A stretch of 22,483 nt of DNA, taken from NCBI GenBank assembly GCA_947246355.1, contig CAMXQX010000014.1, positions 1-22,483 on the forward strand, read 5' to 3'. A program made the translations under genes and the position numbers. Shown piece after piece: positions 80 to 11,903 of this stretch. How positions within the stretch are numbered: the first letter of the stretch is position 1; each line of letters starts with the position of its first letter. The DNA comes from an uncultured Bacillota bacterium. GTDB lineage: Bacteria > Bacillota_I > Bacilli_A > RF39 > UBA660. Below the pieces are notes generated by a model. It saw only the letters and a program-made list of their open reading frames with translations. It did no database searches and was not told the DNA's origin.

Positions 80-1360
80 TTATTGAATAAACCTTGCTTT
101 TTTTCTCTTTAACTTTAAAGATAAAGCAATAATAATTGCTAGAAAAAATGCTATAACTACACTTACACCAATATAAATGTATTTACTATTTCCATCAAGA
201 AAAAATGTACTTTCTTTTTCTGCTTTCATAAATCTTTGTAATGTTTTTTCTTTCGTATCGTAAGAATACCAGCCCTTCTCGTCGGTTTCTATGTTGAGCC
301 CATACACCAAATAAAATTCACTATTTGGCCTCTTATATGCCTCTACTTTTTGGCTCCCAATTTCAATTTCTTCCTTTTCATACCCATTTGGAATTTCCTC
401 ACTTACCATATACACCAAATGAACAATACCACTTTCCATTTCATGATAAGGGGTATAATCCACTTTCGTTTCATCTTTATAAGAGTCAAATTTATATAAA
501 TTAACATTTCCTTCTTTATTTCGAAGTCCTACCAGTACATAATCAATTTTATCAATACGGTAAGCTTCTACTTCTTGGTCTTCTATATTTAATTTAATGG
601 TTTCGTGTTCTAAAGAGATTTCTGGCAAGTCTTCTGCTTTTTTTACCATTGTATATTCACTATTCTCTAATTTGACTTGAATGGGTTTGCTATCTACTAA
701 AATAGTAATAGAATATGTCTTTTTCTCTCCATTTTCAGCTGTGACTACAATATCAAATTTATTCTCGCCTTCCTTGATTTCTTTTTCCCCGTCTCCACTC
801 ATCACTGCCTTATCATGACTTTTTGTTGCATTGATTTTTATTTTTTCTGTACCATAAGGAACCGTCATAGAATAATTTGTCTTACTTTTATCAAAAGAAA
901 TTTCATATCCTTCTATACTTAGAGAAGATAAATCATTGTCTCCTGATTTTTTAGGTGTATTTGTATTATTTGTAGATGGTTTTTGTGTATTTGTTTGTTT
1001 TTGATTCACTGTAATCGTAACAGAATTACACCCTACATTTACAATTTCTCCATTACCATTAGATGCTCCTGGACTAAGCGCTACAGATACAACAGTTGTT
1101 CCTACTTCTGTTGCTCGTAAAGTAGCACTTACGGTATTGTTCTCAAGCCATGTATCAGTAAGTCCTGTAATACTTCCCTTGGATGCATTGATAGATGAAA
1201 TATTGGCTGTTAAATCACTTGCTTTGACATAAATGGTGACATTCTCTCCAACTGTAACATTTCTGGAAGAGGCACTGACACTACAACTGGAAGCTTCTAC
1301 CTTCCCTGTAAACATTAAAAATAAAGTGAATGTTAAAACACATAGACAACCCTTTTTCAT
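80..1360 (-). CDS. Membrane-anchored cell-surface protein with cadherin-like beta-sandwich domain
   Basis: ORF track gives 80..1456. I trimmed the start to ATG 1360 (MKKGCLCVLTF...), which has AAGGAGG 5 nt upstream and lies 10 nt after the upstream stop. It has a signal peptide (...FTGKVEASS). The segment DLSSLSIEGYEISFDKSKTNYSMTVPYGTEKIKINAT...KKTYSITI fits the cadherin-like beta-sandwich (PF12733-type) pattern. The C-terminus has a hydrophobic helix (IYIGVSVVIAFFLAIIIALSL) followed by KLKRKK. Confidence 0.75.
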   Translation of the reverse strand: MKKGCLCVLTFTLFLMFTGKVEASSCSVSASSRNVTVGENVTIYVKASDLTANISSINASKGSITGLTDTWLENNTVSATLRATEVGTTVVSVALSPGASNGNGEIVNVGCNSVTITVNQKQTNTQKPSTNNTNTPKKSGDNDLSSLSIEGYEISFDKSKTNYSMTVPYGTEKIKINATKSHDKAVMSGDGEKEIKEGENKFDIVVTAENGEKKTYSITILVDSKPIQVKLENSEYTMVKKAEDLPEISLEHETIKLNIEDQEVEAYRIDKIDYVLVGLRNKEGNVNLYKFDSYKDETKVDYTPYHEMESGIVHLVYMVSEEIPNGYEKEEIEIGSQKVEAYKRPNSEFYLVYGLNIETDEKGWYSYDTKEKTLQRFMKAEKESTFFLDGNSKYIYIGVSVVIAFFLAIIIALSLKLKRKKARFIQ

Positions 1361-1370
1361 AATATCCTCC

Positions 1371-2903
1371 TTATTGACTAATTTGACTTGTTCCTTTGAT
1401 ATGGTTTTTGATTTGTACATAATCTGTTGGCCATATATTGGAATCGTGATTGACATCCGCTGCTTCTTTGTAAGCTCCTTCTAATTTAAGCGTTCCCTTG
1501 ATTGCATTTTTAACTTGTACATAGTCTGTTGCCCAAATATTGGAGTCTCCATTCACATCTCCATAAATGACTACTTGGTACGTTACTTTTTGACTTCCTT
1601 TTTCTAAAGTGACTGTATCTCCTGTTGCTACTTTATCGGTAGTATTATTTGCATTTTTCTCTATCGTTACCGTTAATCCTTCCATATTGCCTTTTAGATT
1701 GTTACTAAATTCTTCATGACTCATTCCTATCTTTATACCACTAATATAATTGTCTTTTATTTTATAATTGGTAATTTTAATCTCTTCCTCCACTGGTGTA
1801 CTTGGTACACAACTTGTATTTTGGGTATTAGGGGCCCCCTCATAAATAGGAATATAGAAGACATAAGCATAATTTTTAAAATCAGCAAATGTTTGGTAAG
1901 ACTTATAGGTTGTTGTAGACTCGGATACGGGAGCTTGTATATTTTGCATATACTGATGTCCACCAAGGTTTGGTCCATAAGGGTCCCATTTTTGAAGATA
2001 CAAACTCATCTGTCCTTTTACATTGTATGTATCATTCACACCAACATACTTCTTATATACAAATTTAGCGCCTTCCACAATGGAAATATAGGGGCTTGTC
2101 CAGTTATTTCCTTCACAGACTAGTTTACCAGTTTTCTCATCCTTTAATATCCCCTTGGCACAAGCAAGCCCATTTTCAATTACTTTTTGGTCTGTTGTTC
2201 CACTCGCTTGAATATTAAAATAATTATAATAACCTTCATAACCTGCATAAGTTCCTGAAATCAAAGAAGAAGTACCTTTCCTTCCTTGTTCTTGAATTAA
2301 ACGAGAAGCCAACATATAAGGACTCACATTGTTTTTCTCTCCTGCCTCTAATAATACTTCTGCATACGTTTTTTCACTTCCTGGGCAGATTTTATTGGCC
2401 ATAAAAGAGCCTTTTAAAATCGATTCTACCCCTTCTTTGGTATGGTAAGATTTAGAATACAAAGATTCAAACATAAAAACATTCGTTTCATTTAAAAAAT
2501 TATAAGGGTTCATATAGTAAGTAATCGCTTCTTCTGATGCATGGTACCAACTGCATACATTGTTAGAACCCTTTTGCGCACAAATATCTGTTTTATAAGA
2601 GTCTTTCGCTGATGCAGAAATTAAACTTTTATTACTGAATTGTACTTTAAACATATCATCCCATGCGACAGGAATTTCTTTGTATTTTTTCCAATCAAAG
2701 AAATGGGTTTGTGCGACAAAAACAGCATTCGGATAAATCGTATGTAATTCTTTTATTTTTTCTTGGTAATCACATGGAAACTTTTTAAGTTCTTCTTCAT
2801 AACCCCCCACATAAGAATCATTATAAATCGCTTTTACAGAAGCAGTACTTATAAAAAGGGCAAAGAAGAAAAAGAATATTTTTTGCGTATGTAGTCGTTT
2901 CAT
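1371..2903 (-). CDS. Secreted peptidoglycan hydrolase-like protein (GH73 / LytD-type N-acetylglucosaminidase domain) with C-terminal dockerin-type repeat pair
   Basis: Start trimmed to ATG 2903 (MKRLHTQK...), with GGAGG 8 nt upstream, followed by a signal peptide. Glucosaminidase-family motifs are present: YYMNPYNFLNETNVFMFESL, NVSPYMLASRLIQEQG, YNYFNIQASG and SLYLQKWDP. The C-terminus carries two 22-residue Ca-binding dockerin-like segments, DVNGDSNIWATDYVQVKNAIKG and DVNHDSNIWPTDYVQIKNHIKG. Confidence 0.7.
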   Translation of the reverse strand: MKRLHTQKIFFFFFALFISTASVKAIYNDSYVGGYEEELKKFPCDYQEKIKELHTIYPNAVFVAQTHFFDWKKYKEIPVAWDDMFKVQFSNKSLISASAKDSYKTDICAQKGSNNVCSWYHASEEAITYYMNPYNFLNETNVFMFESLYSKSYHTKEGVESILKGSFMANKICPGSEKTYAEVLLEAGEKNNVSPYMLASRLIQEQGRKGTSSLISGTYAGYEGYYNYFNIQASGTTDQKVIENGLACAKGILKDEKTGKLVCEGNNWTSPYISIVEGAKFVYKKYVGVNDTYNVKGQMSLYLQKWDPYGPNLGGHQYMQNIQAPVSESTTTYKSYQTFADFKNYAYVFYIPIYEGAPNTQNTSCVPSTPVEEEIKITNYKIKDNYISGIKIGMSHEEFSNNLKGNMEGLTVTIEKNANNTTDKVATGDTVTLEKGSQKVTYQVVIYGDVNGDSNIWATDYVQVKNAIKGTLKLEGAYKEAADVNHDSNIWPTDYVQIKNHIKGTSQISQ

Positions 2904-2929
2904 ATCTACCGCCTCCATTATGTAACAAC

Positions 2930-7692: not shown

Positions 7693-9114
7693 TTATCTCG
7701 TTTTTCCCCTACTATTTAATTTTTCAAGTTGTTCTTGATTGATATAAATTACCCTTCCTCCTTTGGGACTGATTTTCGTATCACCAAATACAATCCATAA
7801 AACGTCTACTTCTTTACTGGGCATAGTAGAACAACCATCTGTAAAAATAATTTTATTTTCTACTCGATTTGTAAAAGCATTCACTGCTACATTAAAATCT
7901 GTTCCACCACCTCCATAGAAAGATAAATTATCAATGTCTGCTTCATTTTTTATTTCTGTAAAACCATAAAACATAGTATCAAAACACCCTACTTTTACCT
8001 TTGAAGTTTGTAAAATATTTTTACATTCTCTTAAAAAATTGCGAAGCAACACCTCATCAATGGAACCACTCGTATCTAGGACAATCTCTGTTTCTGGTCT
8101 TGGTATTTCTTCTAAATAGGTGGTGACAATTCCATCCTCAATCTCCACATTTTCATAAGACCAATCCACATCATACTTTACCGCTTCTTTGAGTAACATT
8201 CGCCAATCCAAAAGAGGTGTGGATGTTCCAATATTGGCTATGGTTCTTACATCACTGTTTGTACTATCACCATGCCCAAGGGCCTCTTTTGCTAGTTCAT
8301 TTTGTAACTCCTCTAATTGTCTTTTTCTCTCTATCCTGTTTTGTTTAAATACTTCTCTCTCTCCTACTTGTACTCGATTTTGCATCTCCTCTTGTTTTTT
8401 CTTTTTACTTTCTAATTCTTGCGTCTTTTCTGTTTTCTCTTCCTCGTGTAATGCTTGCCTCTCTTTTTTTCTAGAAAACATTCGTTTCATCTTATCAAAT
8501 AAATTATCTTGGTTTTCTATTTTTTCTTCCTCTAAACCATTGGTGGCATTTCCCTCTCCTTTTTCTTGTTCCTCTCTTTGTTTTTTTAAAGTTGCCTGCT
8601 TCCACATAGAATGCGTATCGTGCCCCACATCATGGTATTTTTCTGTGCTTTCTTCATCGCCCTTTTGTGAACTCTCCTTTTTCGTATTCCCTTTTTGCTC
8701 TTTTTTCGTATCACTTTGTTGTTCTTTCTTTTCTTCTAGTAGTTTTTGATAGAATCCTTCTGCGTCATAAGCGATGGCCTCGGGAATATCGACTCCTCCT
8801 TTTACTAAAGGGAGTCCATCCTGTTTTAATAAAGCATTAATCACTGCGTCGGTGGCTATATTCCATAATTCAGAATCTTTTCCTTCACTTCTAAATATAT
8901 GATGAAATGCAATATAACAAATCTCATGGGCAAGGATAAATACCTGCTCCTCCCGTGACAGAGAGGACAAAAAGAGAGGATTATAGTATATGATTTCTCC
9001 ATCGGTTCCTGCTGTTTCTACGGAAGCCTCACCCACAAATTGGGTATGCGCTACTATACTACCAAATAAAGGATACTTCACTAAAACTCTATTTATAATG
9101 GTCTCAATATGCAT
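7693..9114 (-). CDS. DUF2201-type protein: N-terminal putative metallopeptidase domain, long charged linker, C-terminal VWA domain
   Basis: Start trimmed to ATG 9114 (MHIETIINRV...), with AGGAG 5 nt upstream and 2 nt after the upstream stop. The N-terminal region YPLFGSIVAHTQF...TAGTDGEIIYYNPLFL...FILAHEICYIAFHHIFR...WNIATDAVIN fits the COG3864/PF13203 pattern. About 150 aa of E/K-rich linker follow. The C-terminus has the VWA MIDAS-like motif VLDTSGSI, plus GGGGTDF and IIFTDG. Confidence 0.8.
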   Translation of the reverse strand: MHIETIINRVLVKYPLFGSIVAHTQFVGEASVETAGTDGEIIYYNPLFLSSLSREEQVFILAHEICYIAFHHIFRSEGKDSELWNIATDAVINALLKQDGLPLVKGGVDIPEAIAYDAEGFYQKLLEEKKEQQSDTKKEQKGNTKKESSQKGDEESTEKYHDVGHDTHSMWKQATLKKQREEQEKGEGNATNGLEEEKIENQDNLFDKMKRMFSRKKERQALHEEEKTEKTQELESKKKKQEEMQNRVQVGEREVFKQNRIERKRQLEELQNELAKEALGHGDSTNSDVRTIANIGTSTPLLDWRMLLKEAVKYDVDWSYENVEIEDGIVTTYLEEIPRPETEIVLDTSGSIDEVLLRNFLRECKNILQTSKVKVGCFDTMFYGFTEIKNEADIDNLSFYGGGGTDFNVAVNAFTNRVENKIIFTDGCSTMPSKEVDVLWIVFGDTKISPKGGRVIYINQEQLEKLNSRGKTR

Positions 9115-9116
9115 AG

Positions 9117-9524
9117 TTACTCCTGCACGTGGGCACATAAGGAATATATTTCTTCATTGATTTTATGCCTATTTAAATCAGAATAAGTAACTATAGGGAA
9201 ACAATTTGTAGGTAAATCGAAGGTACTCACTTTTTTATACTTCAATATCTCAACAAACTTTGTTTGTTCTTCAAGTGCAATTTCATTTATATTTTCAATG
9301 AGTAAAATAACAGAACCCTTTTTACTTTTTTCTATTAATTCTTTATACCATGTTGGTGGACAAAATTCGACATTCTCATAATGTCCATTTAGCTCAAGTC
9401 GATCTATATTTGCACTTATTGCTACCACATTCGTAAAAACAGTCGCAGGAAGATTTTGAATTAATAAGGGAGAAATTCCACACTGTAAGTAGCTTTCTAA
9501 TAAATTAAATCTATCTTTATTCAT
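9117..9524 (-). CDS. Degenerate AAA+ core paralogue (no P-loop) of the upstream ATPase
   Basis: ATG 9524 overlaps the upstream stop as ATGA, with AAGGAGG 9 nt upstream. The 135-aa product aligns by eye with residues about 230-400 of the 9521..11266 product. CPPTWYKELIEKSKKGSVILLIENINE matches VPPTWYIKLKEKCEKEPNKIHIVFFDELTN, DLPTNCFPIV matches RLPANARIVA, and CAHV matches FAHV. The Walker A position reads QNLPATVF and Walker B DE is replaced by EN. Confidence 0.7.
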   Translation of the reverse strand: MNKDRFNLLESYLQCGISPLLIQNLPATVFTNVVAISANIDRLELNGHYENVEFCPPTWYKELIEKSKKGSVILLIENINEIALEEQTKFVEILKYKKVSTFDLPTNCFPIVTYSDLNRHKINEEIYSLCAHVQE

Positions 9525-11266
9525 TTTCTAATTCCTCCTTGGGTATTTTCCTCAGACATTTGTATTTCAAGTAAATACTCTAACCTAGACGTGTCTCCAT
9601 GAACCCACATTGATTCAAAGACAGCTCTTGGTTCTGCACCTAATTGTTTCATAAAATCTCTAACTACCTCAAAATGCTCTTCATCTACAGAAGACAAACC
9701 AGCAGCTGTTGTGAATTTTTGTGCAACATTCATTTCTAAATCCTTCTCTGTGTAATTGTGCTGCAGTACATCCTCAATACGTATAACTTGAAGACTGGAA
9801 AATGCAACAAAGTCTCTTGTTAACTCTTCTCCAATGAGGGCTCGAAGCATTTCTTGCTTTTTCGTTTTATATAATACTTTGGATGCCATCTCCCATTTTC
9901 TTGGGTCGGCATTTGGTTTTTCTCCTGTATAAGGTGTTCTTAATACATCTTGTCCACTATAAGACTTGTAAGCCACATAAGCATAAATGGATGGATGAAT
10001 TTTTGGTTCTACCTTTTCTTCTTGATAGTCCAATCTTTCATAATTTTCTCTTGGTGTAATAGCCCATTTTAACCAGCTATCAACAGTCGTTTGAATATAT
10101 ACATGCGCAAAACGATTAAATAATGGTTCTGCCATTTGATTGGCAGCAAGAGAATCATTCAAATCATTTCCAGCTGCCACAATTCTTGCATTGGCTGGTA
10201 GCCTCCATTTCCCATCCACTTCTCCGTCCAAGACAATGTTAAATGCCATTCCTTGAATACTTGGTAGTGCATTGGTGAGTTCATCAAAGAATACAATATG
10301 GATTTTGTTAGGCTCTTTTTCGCATTTTTCCTTTAGTTTTATGTACCACGTTGGTGGTACATCCATCATTTCTCCCGTTGCAGCATTATATACACTTTTT
10401 CCATTTAAACTGTTTGGTGTTGCATTTCTCATGTATATAATTTCACAGTCTGGATCCAATTGTTTTACTCTTGCGGATTTTCCCTCACTGGATCTACCAT
10501 GTAAAAATACAGAAACATTGCTTTCGATGGCCCCTTTAATGATATCCTCCTCAGAGACACAATTAAAATCAAAATCAAAATCATAAGGATTTTTCCTTTT
10601 TATTCCGCTATCTATATTATTTATTGGCTCTGTATTTTGTAAAATCCTATTAGATACAATCTCTTTAGCAAAACAAGTATCTATAAATTGCTTTATATCA
10701 GTTCTCTCAAAATCCCCTTGGTAATTGTTATTATTCTGAAATTTTACACCTGAGAAAATCAGTTTCTTAGAAAGCGCTATATTGGATACTCTATCTACTA
10801 GCCATGTGATAGGCTCAACCAAAACCCAATAAGCTTTTCCCTCTTCAATTTTTCTTCCATCGGATAGAGTCTGTCCACTACAATTTCCATCCGCTACAAA
10901 ACGAATACACTTCTTTCCATTATATTCGTATTCCATATGTTCTCTTGCCACAAACGAACGACTATACTCTTGATAATTTACAGAGTCCGTTGTATACTTT
11001 TTTCCTGTTCTATTTATCCTATCACTTTGAAATGCACGTTCAAAATCTGCTTCCTCACTGGCACGCAAAATAGACTGTGGATATTCACCATAGTCGACTT
11101 CTATTATTTGACCCCTGCCTCTCACTTCGTTCGAGGAGATGTTTTGGATTAAAGAGTAAGGTAAAGCTGGGCGTGCCCCAACATACCGTAAATTAACATT
11201 GTATAAGTAACCATTCCCATCATTGTCAACAGCGCGCGCGAGCACAAACGGGGCACAAGAGCGCAA
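9521..11266 (-). CDS. MoxR/AAA_5-class AAA+ ATPase with lectin-like N-terminal domain; 5' end uncertain
   Basis: Walker A is FLHGRSSEGKS, Walker B is IHIVFFDELT and sensor-1 is ARIVAAGN, with a helical lid/C-terminal domain. Residues about 55-215 (IIEVDYGEYPQ...YWVLVEPITWLVD...LSKKLIFSGVKF...DIKQFIDTCFAKE) resemble a Firmicutes lectin/FGE-like extracellular-type domain. The track start 11266 is a TTG with no SD. The first in-frame ATG is at 10936, and an SD-like GAGAGGCAGGGG lies at 11123-11112. Confidence 0.75.
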   Translation of the reverse strand: MRSCAPFVLARAVDNDGNGYLYNVNLRYVGARPALPYSLIQNISSNEVRGRGQIIEVDYGEYPQSILRASEEADFERAFQSDRINRTGKKYTTDSVNYQEYSRSFVAREHMEYEYNGKKCIRFVADGNCSGQTLSDGRKIEEGKAYWVLVEPITWLVDRVSNIALSKKLIFSGVKFQNNNNYQGDFERTDIKQFIDTCFAKEIVSNRILQNTEPINNIDSGIKRKNPYDFDFDFNCVSEEDIIKGAIESNVSVFLHGRSSEGKSARVKQLDPDCEIIYMRNATPNSLNGKSVYNAATGEMMDVPPTWYIKLKEKCEKEPNKIHIVFFDELTNALPSIQGMAFNIVLDGEVDGKWRLPANARIVAAGNDLNDSLAANQMAEPLFNRFAHVYIQTTVDSWLKWAITPRENYERLDYQEEKVEPKIHPSIYAYVAYKSYSGQDVLRTPYTGEKPNADPRKWEMASKVLYKTKKQEMLRALIGEELTRDFVAFSSLQVIRIEDVLQHNYTEKDLEMNVAQKFTTAAGLSSVDEEHFEVVRDFMKQLGAEPRAVFESMWVHGDTSRLEYLLEIQMSEENTQGGIRK

Positions 11267-11293
11267 ACACGCAAAAAATAAATTTTCTTCTTA
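11165..11293 (-). other. GC-rich, NNY-codon-rich segment resembling a DGR variable/template repeat (in frame with the AAA+ gene)
   Basis: The frame opens after TAA 11293-11291 and encodes EENLFFACLRSCAPFVLARAVDNDGNGYLYNVNLRYVGARPAL. Region 11231-11272 has 28/42 G+C, including the alternating run GCGCGCGCG. In 11227-11180, 12 of 16 codons are NNY (N/D/G/Y/V). A 14-nt G/C-rich block, GGGGCACGCCCAGC, follows at 11179-11166. There is no ATG or SD. Confidence 0.4.
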
Positions 11294-11318
11294 ATTAAAG
11301 GCTTTTCAACCTAAAATC

Positions 11319-11903
11319 CTATTTTTTCATTTTCCATCTTGCATCATCACTCTTTTTCCAAGCAACGATTAGATTAATTGCCTCTGCAAGTTGCATAGAA
11401 ATCTGTTTGTATTGCTTTTTCAAAATACAGTTGGAGTTGAAAGCAAGCAAGGCCATATACCCTAAAAGTTTTAAGTTAACAATTGCTTCTTTTTGATACT
11501 CTTCTCTTTTGGATTTGTTGTTAGAAGACTCCATTCGAATAAAATTAGCTTTTAATAAATACTCTATCGTATCTAGACAATAATTTTGCATCCGATTGAC
11601 GAAGACACCTCTAAATTTTTTAGGGGATTTTTCTGTTACTGCAATCACATAAGCTTTTAATTTTTTAGTAACGGTAATTACCATTAAATCATTAGCATTG
11701 AAAGGAATTTGGTCTATCACCTTTCTATCCTTGTCTTCTTCTATGAGTCCTATTTTTACTTTTGTTTCATCAAACTTTTCATCCTTAGCCATGGCAAGGC
11801 CTTTCTTTGTTGCAAGAACTTCTTCTATATTGTTTGCTCTTTGTGTTACAATTTCTATTTTTTTGGGGATTTTTAAATGATTCGATCTACTGACTTGATA
11901 CAT
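11319..11903 (-). CDS. Avd-like / 23S-rRNA-IVS-type four-helix-bundle protein with about 80-aa N-terminal extension
   Basis: ATG 11903 lies 16 nt after the fmt stop and is preceded by GAGGTAAGGA. An alternative start is MAKDEK at residue 38. The C-terminal 115 aa (KLKAYVIAVTEKSPKKFRGVFVNRMQNYCLDTIEYLLKAN...KEAIVNLKLLGYMALLAF...KKQYKQISMQLAEAINLIVAWKK) follow the helix pattern and the P-[KR]-K ... A-[NG] ... W landmarks I recall for Avd / PF05635-family proteins. Confidence 0.5.
   Translation of the reverse strand: MYQVSRSNHLKIPKKIEIVTQRANNIEEVLATKKGLAMAKDEKFDETKVKIGLIEEDKDRKVIDQIPFNANDLMVITVTKKLKAYVIAVTEKSPKKFRGVFVNRMQNYCLDTIEYLLKANFIRMESSNNKSKREEYQKEAIVNLKLLGYMALLAFNSNCILKKQYKQISMQLAEAINLIVAWKKSDDARWKMKK

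Follow-up and report, generated by a model that had tools for sequence, protein, structure and literature searches.

An open reading frame that leads into a MoxR/dynein-class AAA+ ATPase gene of an uncultured Bacillota bacterium (GTDB lineage Bacilli_A; RF39; UBA660) raises the question of how a coding frame comes to begin without ATG or Shine-Dalgarno (SD) sequence in DNA that resembles a repeat of a diversity-generating retroelement (DGR). The frame lies in a stretch of 22,483 nt of contig CAMXQX010000014.1 (assembly GCA_947246355.1), referred to here as the window; all coordinates are those of the whole window, and the segment in question, the avd-like gene next to it, and the AAA+ gene are all on the minus strand. 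The initial annotation of the segment at 11165-11293 had left the choice between a variable repeat (VR) served by a DGR elsewhere, a template repeat (TR) or relic of a decayed DGR, and the captured strand of a permuted lectin domain. Comparison with intact relatives makes it very probable that positions 11167-11240 are a TR::VR chimera, neither an intact VR nor an intact TR, belonging to a decayed DGR without its reverse transcriptase (RT).

Sequence features of the segment

The frame continuous with the AAA+ gene opens after the TAA at 11293-11291 and encodes the peptide EENLFFACLRSCAPFVLARAVDNDGNGYLYNVNLRYVGARPALPYSL. As the initial annotation had stated, TTG 11266 and GTG 11245 are its only possible starts, and a purine-rich SD sequence is found upstream of neither. 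Region 11231-11272 was correctly singled out as the most GC-rich patch, with 66.7% G+C compared to 32.7% over the whole window, and the highest-ranked 42-nt stretches of the 22.5 kb all begin at 11216-11234. The codons at 11227-11180, described as having the spectrum expected from adenine mutagenesis, read GAC AAT GAT GGG AAT GGT TAC TTA TAC AAT GTT AAT TTA CGG TAT GTT on the minus strand, exactly as reported. They are followed by the G/C-rich block GGGGCACGCCCAGC at 11179-11166. This block forms the 3' end of the repeat, and its core GGGGCACGCCCAG (11167-11179) occurs a single time in the window even when 2 mismatches are allowed, with 0.01 occurrences expected by chance.

A functional DGR is characterized by a locus-encoded RT and by a pair of TR and VR. 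The near-repeat and the DGR-type RT that the initial annotation proposed to look for are both missing from the 22.5-kb window: a repeat search and a search with the GC block at 2 mismatches reveal one repeat copy and no second TR or VR, tblastn with the RT of the related elements gives no match, and no open reading frame contains RT motifs. The N-terminus of the target protein is likewise absent from the window by tblastn. Intact relatives possess all of these parts, and their TR/VR pairs differ by adenine-specific mismatches.

Intact elements in related genomes

A scan of one genome per species yields 70 loci, nearly all of them from gut or rumen metagenome-assembled genomes (MAGs) labelled Bacilli, "Tenericutes" or "Clostridium". 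About 50 of the 70 species-level loci show the order avd, RT, N-terminal part of the target and AAA+ part, mostly followed by a small gene and a DUF2201 gene. The intact cassette comprises avd, a non-coding gap of ~380 nt, a 340-aa RT of the RVT_1 type, an AAA+ protein of ~640 aa, a protein of ~134 aa and a DUF2201 protein. The gap is divided into a leader of 78 nt, a TR of 74-96 nt and a spacer of ~230 nt that precedes the RT. The VR is located near the 5' end of the target gene, in the N-terminal domain.

The RTs carry the motif 4 signature (I/L/V)GxxxSQ together with YxDD, as is typical of the DGR clade, in the form of LPLGNQSSQ and YVRYMDD in all four RTs examined. Among solved structures, they match best a reverse transcriptase of 328 residues in entries 8ub7-8ube (E=1e-37), which probably represent the BPP-1 DGR RT complex, although no organism is given in the search result. 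The TR of locus L008 starts 79 nt past the avd stop codon and is identical to the VR at 61 of 74 positions, with 13 of the 13 mismatches at TR adenines. The same specificity is found throughout the 34 ungapped TR/VR pairs, where 371 of 404 mismatches fall at TR adenines, corresponding to a change rate of 44% at adenine positions versus 2% at all others (Fisher p=3e-160). Judged by their sequences, the related intact loci (L008, L011-L013, L014-L083 and L169) can be regarded as a bona fide DGR family.

Identity of the chimeric repeat

The Avd of the window is orthologous to the avd products of the intact cassettes, with 55-80% identity. The chimeric repeat begins 79 nt past the avd stop codon, which is the exact start of the TR in intact relatives, and the place downstream of an Avd-like gene that the initial annotation had recognized as the usual position of a template repeat is thereby confirmed. 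The 78 nt in between (11241..11318) align base for base with the leaders of L013, L011, L012 and L008, which are non-coding in intact elements. In the alignment with intact relatives, this stretch is unlike the 5' coding sequence of the target. Translated, this leader accounts for the "EENLFFACLRSCAPFVL" portion of the open frame and for its TTG and GTG "starts", and it also contains the GC-rich patch.

The repeat itself, 74 nt long (11167..11240), has homology to the TRs as well as the VRs of intact relatives. It consists of a 13-nt 5' constant block CGCGCGCGCTGTT at 11228-11240, which matches TR and VR, the 16 variable codons at 11180-11227, which are in the adenine-mutated (VR) state by comparison with the TRs, and the GC block at 11167-11179, which is again common to both. 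With an A fraction of 0.222, the window repeat lies below the TRs (0.28-0.375) and within the range of the VRs (0.10-0.26), and of the 14 positions at which it departs from the L013 TR, the nearest intact one, 11 are TR adenines. From 11166 on, the sequence CTTTACCTTACTC... (CTTTACC..) is the VR-type flank and runs into the rest of the target gene, whereas the TR-type flank at the equivalent place is ATTCACTTT.. (ATTCAC..) and differs from the window. Aligned with the TR and VR flanks of L011, L012, L013 and L008, the stretch CTTTACCTTACTCTTTAATC at 11147..11166 is of the target type and occupies what is presumably the position of the initiation of mutagenic homing (IMH) element. The locus retains an accessory avd gene next to the TR position as well as a GC-rich VR 3' end with a target-specific, IMH-like flank. 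Among the options of the initial annotation, that of a TR or relic of a decayed DGR describes this arrangement best, with an avd-TR leader on the 5' side, a VR-type flank and target on the 3' side, and neither RT, spacer nor target N-terminus.

Origin of the scar

The ancestral locus would have been a chromosomal DGR with the order avd, 78-nt leader, TR, spacer of ~230 nt, RT, target gene, small gene and DUF2201 VWA gene, and its target would have contained an N-terminal module ending in the VR, followed by the beta-rich domain and the AAA+ ATPase. TR and VR, each ~74 nt long, would have been direct repeats with about 1.6 kb between them. A crossover in the CGCGCGCGCTGTT block, within the first 13-30 nt of the repeat, would have deleted the sequence in between, so that the RT gene and the spacer were lost together with the 3' portion of the TR and the first ~85 target codons. 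The product would be an avd leader joined to the most recent VR allele, with the remaining part of the target behind it. The location of the junction within the first 13-30 nt follows from the VR state of the variable codons. Fusion of leader and VR explains why the frame opens in a non-coding leader without ATG or SD sequence, and also why a GC-rich patch, codons with an adenine-mutagenized appearance and a GC block follow one another. Short-homology or homologous recombination between the repeats is the inferred mechanism, recombination or replication slippage between direct repeats being the simplest cause. As the window locus has neither an RT nor an intact TR, it would be incapable of diversifying itself, leaving the allele frozen.

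Recurrence in strains and sister lineages

Independent samples and assemblers (NCBI MAG GCA_964018065.1, Logan and ENA) have yielded at least 9 contigs with the scar junction. Contigs L004, L006 and L007 show no difference from the window, and L005, despite a divergence of 0.7% over 11.7 kb, has the same allele, which indicates that the allele is frozen within the window lineage. L087 differs from the window in 3 of 1952 bases, two of which (11227 and 11221; A for G) turn GAC and GAT into AAC and AAT. The two 5'-most informative codons of L087 are consequently in the TR state and the rest in the VR state, with 13 mutated codons in common with the window. Such a polarity would result if the crossover of a TR(5')::VR(3') chimera lay a little deeper in the repeat, or from heteroduplex resolution. 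Two scans of JGI metagenome contigs, one with the scar alleles and one with the species-specific VR 3' flank, gave 0 matches.

A sister lineage, designated lineage B (L171-L175), is represented by five samples, is clonal and contains the same RT-less scar. Its contig L171 is 98.3% identical to the window over 6.9 kb, with ~40 of the 110 mismatches concentrated in the ~450 nt after the avd stop codon, while the priA-fmt-avd side is about 99% identical. The lineage B allele reads CAC TCT AGT GGA AAT AGA GAC TAG ATC TAT GTT AAT GGA CGG TAT GTT and includes an in-frame TAG. It differs from the window allele at 16 of 48 nt, and all 16 differences are at positions occupied by A in the L013 TR (chance about 9e-7); the next ~125 nt after the variable codons contain 1 difference. 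Three non-adenine departures from the L013 TR are common to the two lineages, which indicates that both alleles were copied from the same TR, the species' own. In the strain comparison over 11180-11227 that the initial annotation proposed, the allele is frozen inside the window lineage and differs, at TR-adenine positions, between the window lineage and lineage B.

The same junction of avd leader, VR-state repeat and AAA+ gene, without RT and N-terminus, is also found in L028, a distant MAG with a different AAA+ subfamily. The L028 repeat contains a 1-nt insertion and stop codons, and its Avd and AAA+ proteins are 66% and 32% identical to those of the window. By these sequence comparisons, the L028 scar represents an independent event. 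The TR-VR deletion has thus occurred at least twice independently and probably three or four times. For the window lineage and lineage B, independent deletions are favored over one deletion followed by rewriting in trans, since L028 and L087 show recurrence, no Avd paralogue of 80-99% identity is found and neither lineage varies internally.

Alternative explanations

Several observations weigh against the explanation as a deletion between TR and VR. The intact ancestral locus of the window species was not found, and the nearest intact TR, that of L013, accompanies an Avd of 80% identity. The inspection covered 22.5 kb of the genome, so an RT elsewhere is possible. Lineage B combines the same scar with 16 different bases, all at TR-adenine positions, and this can be reconciled only if the deletion happened a second time, independently, or if an RT was still active afterwards. 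In addition, the crossover of all 3-4 scars lies at the extreme 5' end. The identical block at the 3' end is equally long, and such a bias is not predicted by plain recombination.

RT activity after the deletion would make the repeat an orphan but live VR. Under this reading, a single deletion would have taken place in the ancestor of the window lineage and lineage B, and the scar, with its 5' block, GC block and VR-type 3' flank preserved, would since have been rewritten by a second DGR with RT and matching TR elsewhere in the genome. This is in essence the first option of the initial annotation, and it draws its strength from the contrast between the near identity of the priA-fmt-avd side (about 99%) and the 16 of 48 differing positions, all of them TR adenines (P~9e-7). 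It is also in keeping with the lack of an intact cassette of the window species among the examined contigs that carry its Avd and with the several relatives in which one TR serves two targets. Nothing is varying now, however: the same allele occurs in L005 despite the divergence of this contig (0.7% over 11.7 kb) and in three further samples, and the lineage B allele is identical in all five. A collection of 5.8 billion proteins contains no Avd paralogue of 80-99% identity, and the 22.5-kb window contains neither RT nor second repeat. Moreover, L087 and the window differ at the 5' end of the repeat, whereas partial retrohoming in the marker-transfer work on BPP-1 is reportedly expected to replace the 3' end. 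An orphan VR that is served from elsewhere is therefore unlikely, the frozen allele and the missing RT and repeat counting against it and the TR-adenine differences of lineage B in its favor. The 5' position of the junctions would find an explanation in aberrant retrohoming, in which a read-through cDNA of mutagenized leader and TR bridges the chromosomal leader and the VR 3' end and deletes everything between them; its outcome would be indistinguishable from that of the preferred explanation, with a different cause. The scars of the window, lineage B and L028 are mutated up to the first variable codon, which places their junctions in the 13-nt 5' block and not in the identical 3' block of at least the same length, and recurrence in sister lineages would be explained as well. 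With 3-4 events only, the positional bias is nevertheless statistically weak, and L087, with its 13 shared mutated codons and TR-state 5' end, is easier to reconcile with recombination or heteroduplex resolution. The DGR literature searched offers no experimental precedent, and aberrant retrohoming is an improbable cause of the scars.

An assembly artefact, in which the assembler jumps from TR to VR via shared k-mers, has to be considered because TR and VR share short identical blocks and all data are metagenome assemblies. The VR-state codons leave the 13-nt block as the sole jump point, however, and this is shorter than any assembler k-mer. With the identical junction recovered from different samples, in an NCBI MAG as well as several assemblies of Logan and ENA, such a jump is hardly credible. 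An origin unrelated to DGRs, as a fast-evolving N-terminal loop or a circularly permuted lectin strand rich in Asn, Asp, Tyr and Gly codons, was a fair null beforehand but has no support left after testing and retains practically no probability. It is refuted by the adenine-specific TR/VR pairs, the DGR RT and the Avd of the relatives and by the homology of the window 5' flank to the non-coding TR leader. The captured strand of a permuted lectin domain, as suggested in the initial annotation, is abandoned in the same way: the stretch corresponds to the end of an N-terminal module of ~110 residues, which is lost in the window copy. The deletion between TR and VR is retained as the preferred and very probable explanation, recombination being its simplest cause.

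The target protein

The AAA+ target has 3390 homologues, mostly of 640-650 aa, and one cluster at 90% identity alone contains 818 member sequences. Full-length homologues begin with MNNFTFLTDEQIFG...TGWWWTKS..NDA, and ~70-85 of these residues are absent from the window copy, which lacks the first ~85 codons of the full-length (~645 aa) proteins. A stretch of ~17 residues between "..DAR.V" and "GARPALPYS" is strongly divergent among proteins that are otherwise 70-90% identical. In an alignment of 44 sequences, the ten most variable 10-residue segments of the 644-aa protein all begin at residues 71-80. As far as static assemblies can show, this peak of variability at the VR and the size of the 818-member cluster lend indirect support to mutagenic retrohoming. 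The Pfam family PF19789 (DUF6273) is matched weakly by 6 of the 44 homologues, with a best E value of 1.5e-5. The likeness of the segment to the LRS...GARPAL signature of lectin-fold proteins, noted in the initial annotation, receives weak support from these matches, and the LRS portion, in the peptide LRSCAPFVL, is translated leader and no domain sequence.

In the AlphaFold2 model of a full-length homologue, residues 1-230 are predicted with confidence, with predicted local distance difference test (pLDDT) values mostly of 80-94. The scar peptide of the truncated window protein (residues 1-39) has pLDDT values below 50, compared to 66-84 for the equivalent stretch of the full-length homologue, and residues 40-178 stay confident. 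In Foldseek searches, the AAA+ core has NorQ (E~1e-6), dynein and McrB as best matches. As for a lectin fold, the Foldseek result for the whole protein is dominated by the AAA+ part and lists AAA+ proteins only, and the truncated window model has no PDB match at E<0.1. According to these models, the truncated sensor domain would no longer fold, and the sensor tip of the window protein is probably non-functional. The module of AAA+, small and VWA proteins may still be made from a non-canonical or downstream start. The ratios of nonsynonymous to synonymous substitution rates (dN/dS) between the window and its sister lineage are 0.16 for the AAA+ gene and 0.12 for the small protein, which indicates purifying selection on the module for most of the lineages' separation. 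Gene models of 574-581 aa for the window AAA+ protein consequently describe truncated relics, in which the apparent gene start is a non-coding DGR leader joined to a frozen VR.

Stop codons in template and variable repeats

In-frame stop codons are present in 23 of 34 TRs (TAA in 18, TGA in 6 and TAG in 2), and 12 of the 34 VRs of the species-representative genomes still contain a stop. The "short" homologues of 530-537 aa (P0006 and P0083) are such stop-containing OFF alleles. The stop codons are distributed over loci L008-L083, in the TR between avd and RT and in the VR in the target, with further positions at L168:400-420 and L169:3900-3920. An altered genetic code with TGA read as Trp was rejected as their cause, since TAA and TAG also occur and the window uses all three stops. 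This suggests that diversification by the DGR also switches the N-terminal module of the target ON and OFF. TRs with stops contradict the usual view that AAY-rich TRs avoid nonsense codons, and they make a DGR-driven phase variation directly testable. No description of TRs with in-frame stops was found in published DGR surveys, although they may sit unremarked in DGR catalogues.

Composition of the locus and its relatives

The avd-like gene (11322..11903, stop codon at 11319-11321) encodes 194 aa, with the Avd four-helix-bundle domain at residues ~74-185 preceded by an N-terminal extension of ~70 aa. The protein matches Pfam bAvd (E=1.2e-4) over the whole profile and NCBIfam DivGenRetAVD (E=6.7e-8) over positions 2-103 of 104, both below the curated cut-offs. 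It has 826 homologues, which in relatives are encoded directly upstream of the TR and the DGR RT. Just 3' of the avd stop codon, a hairpin with a GNRA tetraloop, AGGTT GAAA AGCCT (11299..11312), is conserved in relatives and is followed by a box that is invariant in the leader alignment, TTAATTAAG (11290-11298). Among 29 distinct relatives, pairing is kept in 97.9% of the alignment cells of the hairpin, with compensatory changes at 3 of the 5 pairs; none of 500 shuffles attains this level. Retained in the relic, the hairpin presumably belongs to the DGR RNA or serves as a signal in the 3' processing of avd. In contig L087, the avd gene and hairpin upstream of window position 11294 are replaced by 56 unusually GC-rich nucleotides (L087:1-56), with the break inside the TTAATTAAG box. 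These have no match in any fetched locus and may be a chimeric contig end or an insertion.

At the other end of the repeat, the GC block (11166-11182) has the form of a short palindrome, GTTGGG GCACG CCCAGC, with a T-rich run behind it, and a simple scan classes it as terminator-like. Its presence in both TR and VR means that the palindrome could act as a structural signal when cDNA synthesis is primed or in homing. DNA folds downstream of the VR (hairpin or cruciform) and in the GC-rich leader are no better than those of shuffled sequences (z = 0.0 to 1.4), and an Rfam scan of the window yields no family.

The remainder of the target gene (9521..11146) encodes, by comparison with homologues, the rest of the beta-rich N-terminal domain and the AAA+ ATPase, for which Pfam gives weak matches to AAA_5 and Sigma54_activat. 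It is followed by the gene of a conserved 135-aa partner protein (9117..9524), syntenic in nearly all related loci, with no match in Pfam, NCBIfam or PADLOC. The third gene of the module (7693..9138) is likewise syntenic in relatives and encodes a DUF2201 protein with a putative metallopeptidase N-domain and a VWA-like domain (Pfam DUF2201_N, E=1.3e-31; DUF2201, E=2e-12). The AAA+, small and DUF2201 proteins obtain no assignment from PADLOC or NCBIfam. Lineage B carries an element encoding a serine recombinase (Resolvase/Recombinase/Zn_ribbon_recom; L084:808-2544) in its AAA+ gene, at window position ~10873. In L084, of a 95%-identical sister lineage, the DUF2201 gene is split into pieces of 310 aa and 168 aa (L084:4245-5687, corresponding to window 7693-9138). 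Insertion and split are further decay of the module. A second divergent patch between the window and lineage B is located at 10949-10988, where TTDSVNYQEYSRSFVA stands against TTDTISNRGYSLSFAA; ~14 of 40 nt differ, and the differences are not adenine specific. Homologues also vary in the loop of the beta-rich domain into which the patch falls; diversifying selection on this loop or a recombination tract may account for it. Unrelated to the DGR, two large secreted proteins with dockerin-like and cadherin-like repeats are encoded at 80-2918 (minus strand), and Pfam finds Dockerin_1 and Cadherin-like domains on their counterparts in L004. The same region contains a 68-nt internal direct repeat at 1390-1457 and 1492-1559, which is unrelated as well.

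Variations on the cassette are found elsewhere in the family. A second copy of N-terminal module and AAA+ gene lies downstream in six loci (L020, L039, L042, L044, L048 and L069), and in four of these (L020, L039, L042 and L044) the VR of the second target also matches the single TR, so that one TR corresponds to two targets. The P0018 locus (L001-L003) contains genes for a full-length 650-aa target, the small protein and the DUF2201 protein, with no avd or RT within 10 kb and with IS605-type tnpB and RhuM genes immediately upstream; its target is either an orphan or served from elsewhere. Other routes of decay include loss of the TR (L041), fragmentation of the RT (L019, L056, L057 and L082) and a frameshifted VR (L011). 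A phage origin of the cassette was considered and is unlikely, as 1 of the 80 best IMG/VR relatives of the RT (L088) has the cassette. The remaining ones are RTs of ordinary phage DGRs with 28-41% identity, and the mapped contigs L089 and L090 are without cassette genes.

Relationship to known systems

The relic itself is a case of ordinary genome decay. The family to which it belongs, in which a DGR would hypermutate the presumed sensor tip of an AAA+ ATPase in gut Bacilli, is apparently large and undescribed. It includes at least 50 species-level gut and rumen MAGs, with the target in a three-gene module together with a DUF2201 VWA protein. A TR-VR deletion is a decay route that is possible only where the TR lies upstream of the VR in direct orientation. 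For such scars, and for AAA+ targets with an N-terminal VR, nothing specific was found in the DGR literature, and scars may sit unremarked in catalogues. A tentative and rather unlikely reading of the family is that of an uncharacterized class of DGR-driven intracellular sensors in small-genome gut Bacilli. Here, the N-terminal ligand-binding tip of a MoxR-like AAA+ ATPase would be hypermutated, the VWA/metallopeptidase partner would work with the ATPase, and the stop-bearing TR would act as an ON/OFF switch. With the TR upstream of the VR in direct orientation, read-through cDNA or recombination between the repeats would recurrently delete the RT and lock the system OFF, as in the window.

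The DGR of phage BPP-1, with its order of mtd-VR, avd, TR and brt, is the obvious reference. The relatives of the window locus resemble it in having an Avd, a TR and an RT with (I/L)GxxxSQ and YMDD motifs, in the adenine specificity of the VR changes and in a GC-rich block that ends the repeat, right after which the flanks differ. This divergence of flanks is presumably placed like that between IMH and IMH* in BPP-1. In contrast to BPP-1, the family has the order avd, TR, RT and target, the VR is near the 5' end of the target instead of the 3' end and the target is a cytoplasmic-looking, AAA+-fused protein and not a phage tail fiber. Most TRs of the family contain in-frame stops, and the window copy is without RT and spacer and has one chimeric repeat only.

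MoxR-vWA conflict systems of the "VMAP ternary" type that are associated with DGRs have been described from cyanobacteria and gammaproteobacteria (Kaur et al. 2020, PMC7159879; Dore et al. 2024, PMC10907252). The hypervariable lectin-type domain is proposed to be the invader sensor of an NTP-dependent conflict system (PMC7159879, PMC10907252). In the present family, too, a DGR is combined with a MoxR-class AAA+ ATPase whose operon also contains the gene of a separate vWA protein. VMAP ternary systems carry the VR-bearing CLec/FGS domain at the C-terminus, usually of the vWA protein, whereas the VR-bearing domain is N-terminal and on the AAA+ ATPase here. The vWA partner also differs, being a DUF2201 protein with a metallopeptidase-like N-domain encoded two genes downstream of the AAA+ gene. 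Genes for VMAP, TIR, trypsin or adaptor proteins are not seen in the loci of the family, and apart from the metallopeptidase-like N-domain of the DUF2201 protein, no effector domain is recognized in the module by Pfam, NCBIfam or PADLOC. The hosts of VMAP ternary systems are multicellular bacteria, compared to small-genome gut Bacilli in this case.

The phage "tentaclins" possess a DGR target domain of the N-terminal DUF6273 type with a C-type-lectin-like fold (PMC10743442). They are similar in having the VR in the 5' part of the target, and a weak DUF6273 signature, WWW(T/L)(K/R)S...G(A/V)RPAL, surrounds the VR of the present family. Tentaclins are receptor-binding tail proteins with Ig-like domains, whereas the domain order here looks permuted relative to Pfam DUF6273 and continues into an ATPase. 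NorQ/NorD and other MoxR-VWA chaperone pairs correspond to the family in the AAA+ core, for which NorQ is the best match, and in the pairing with a VWA protein; unlike the family, they have no hypervariable domain, retroelement or small third protein. The family thus extends the link between DGRs and NTPase conflict systems to host-associated, small-genome bacteria, with a different fusion partner and the variable domain at the other end of the protein.

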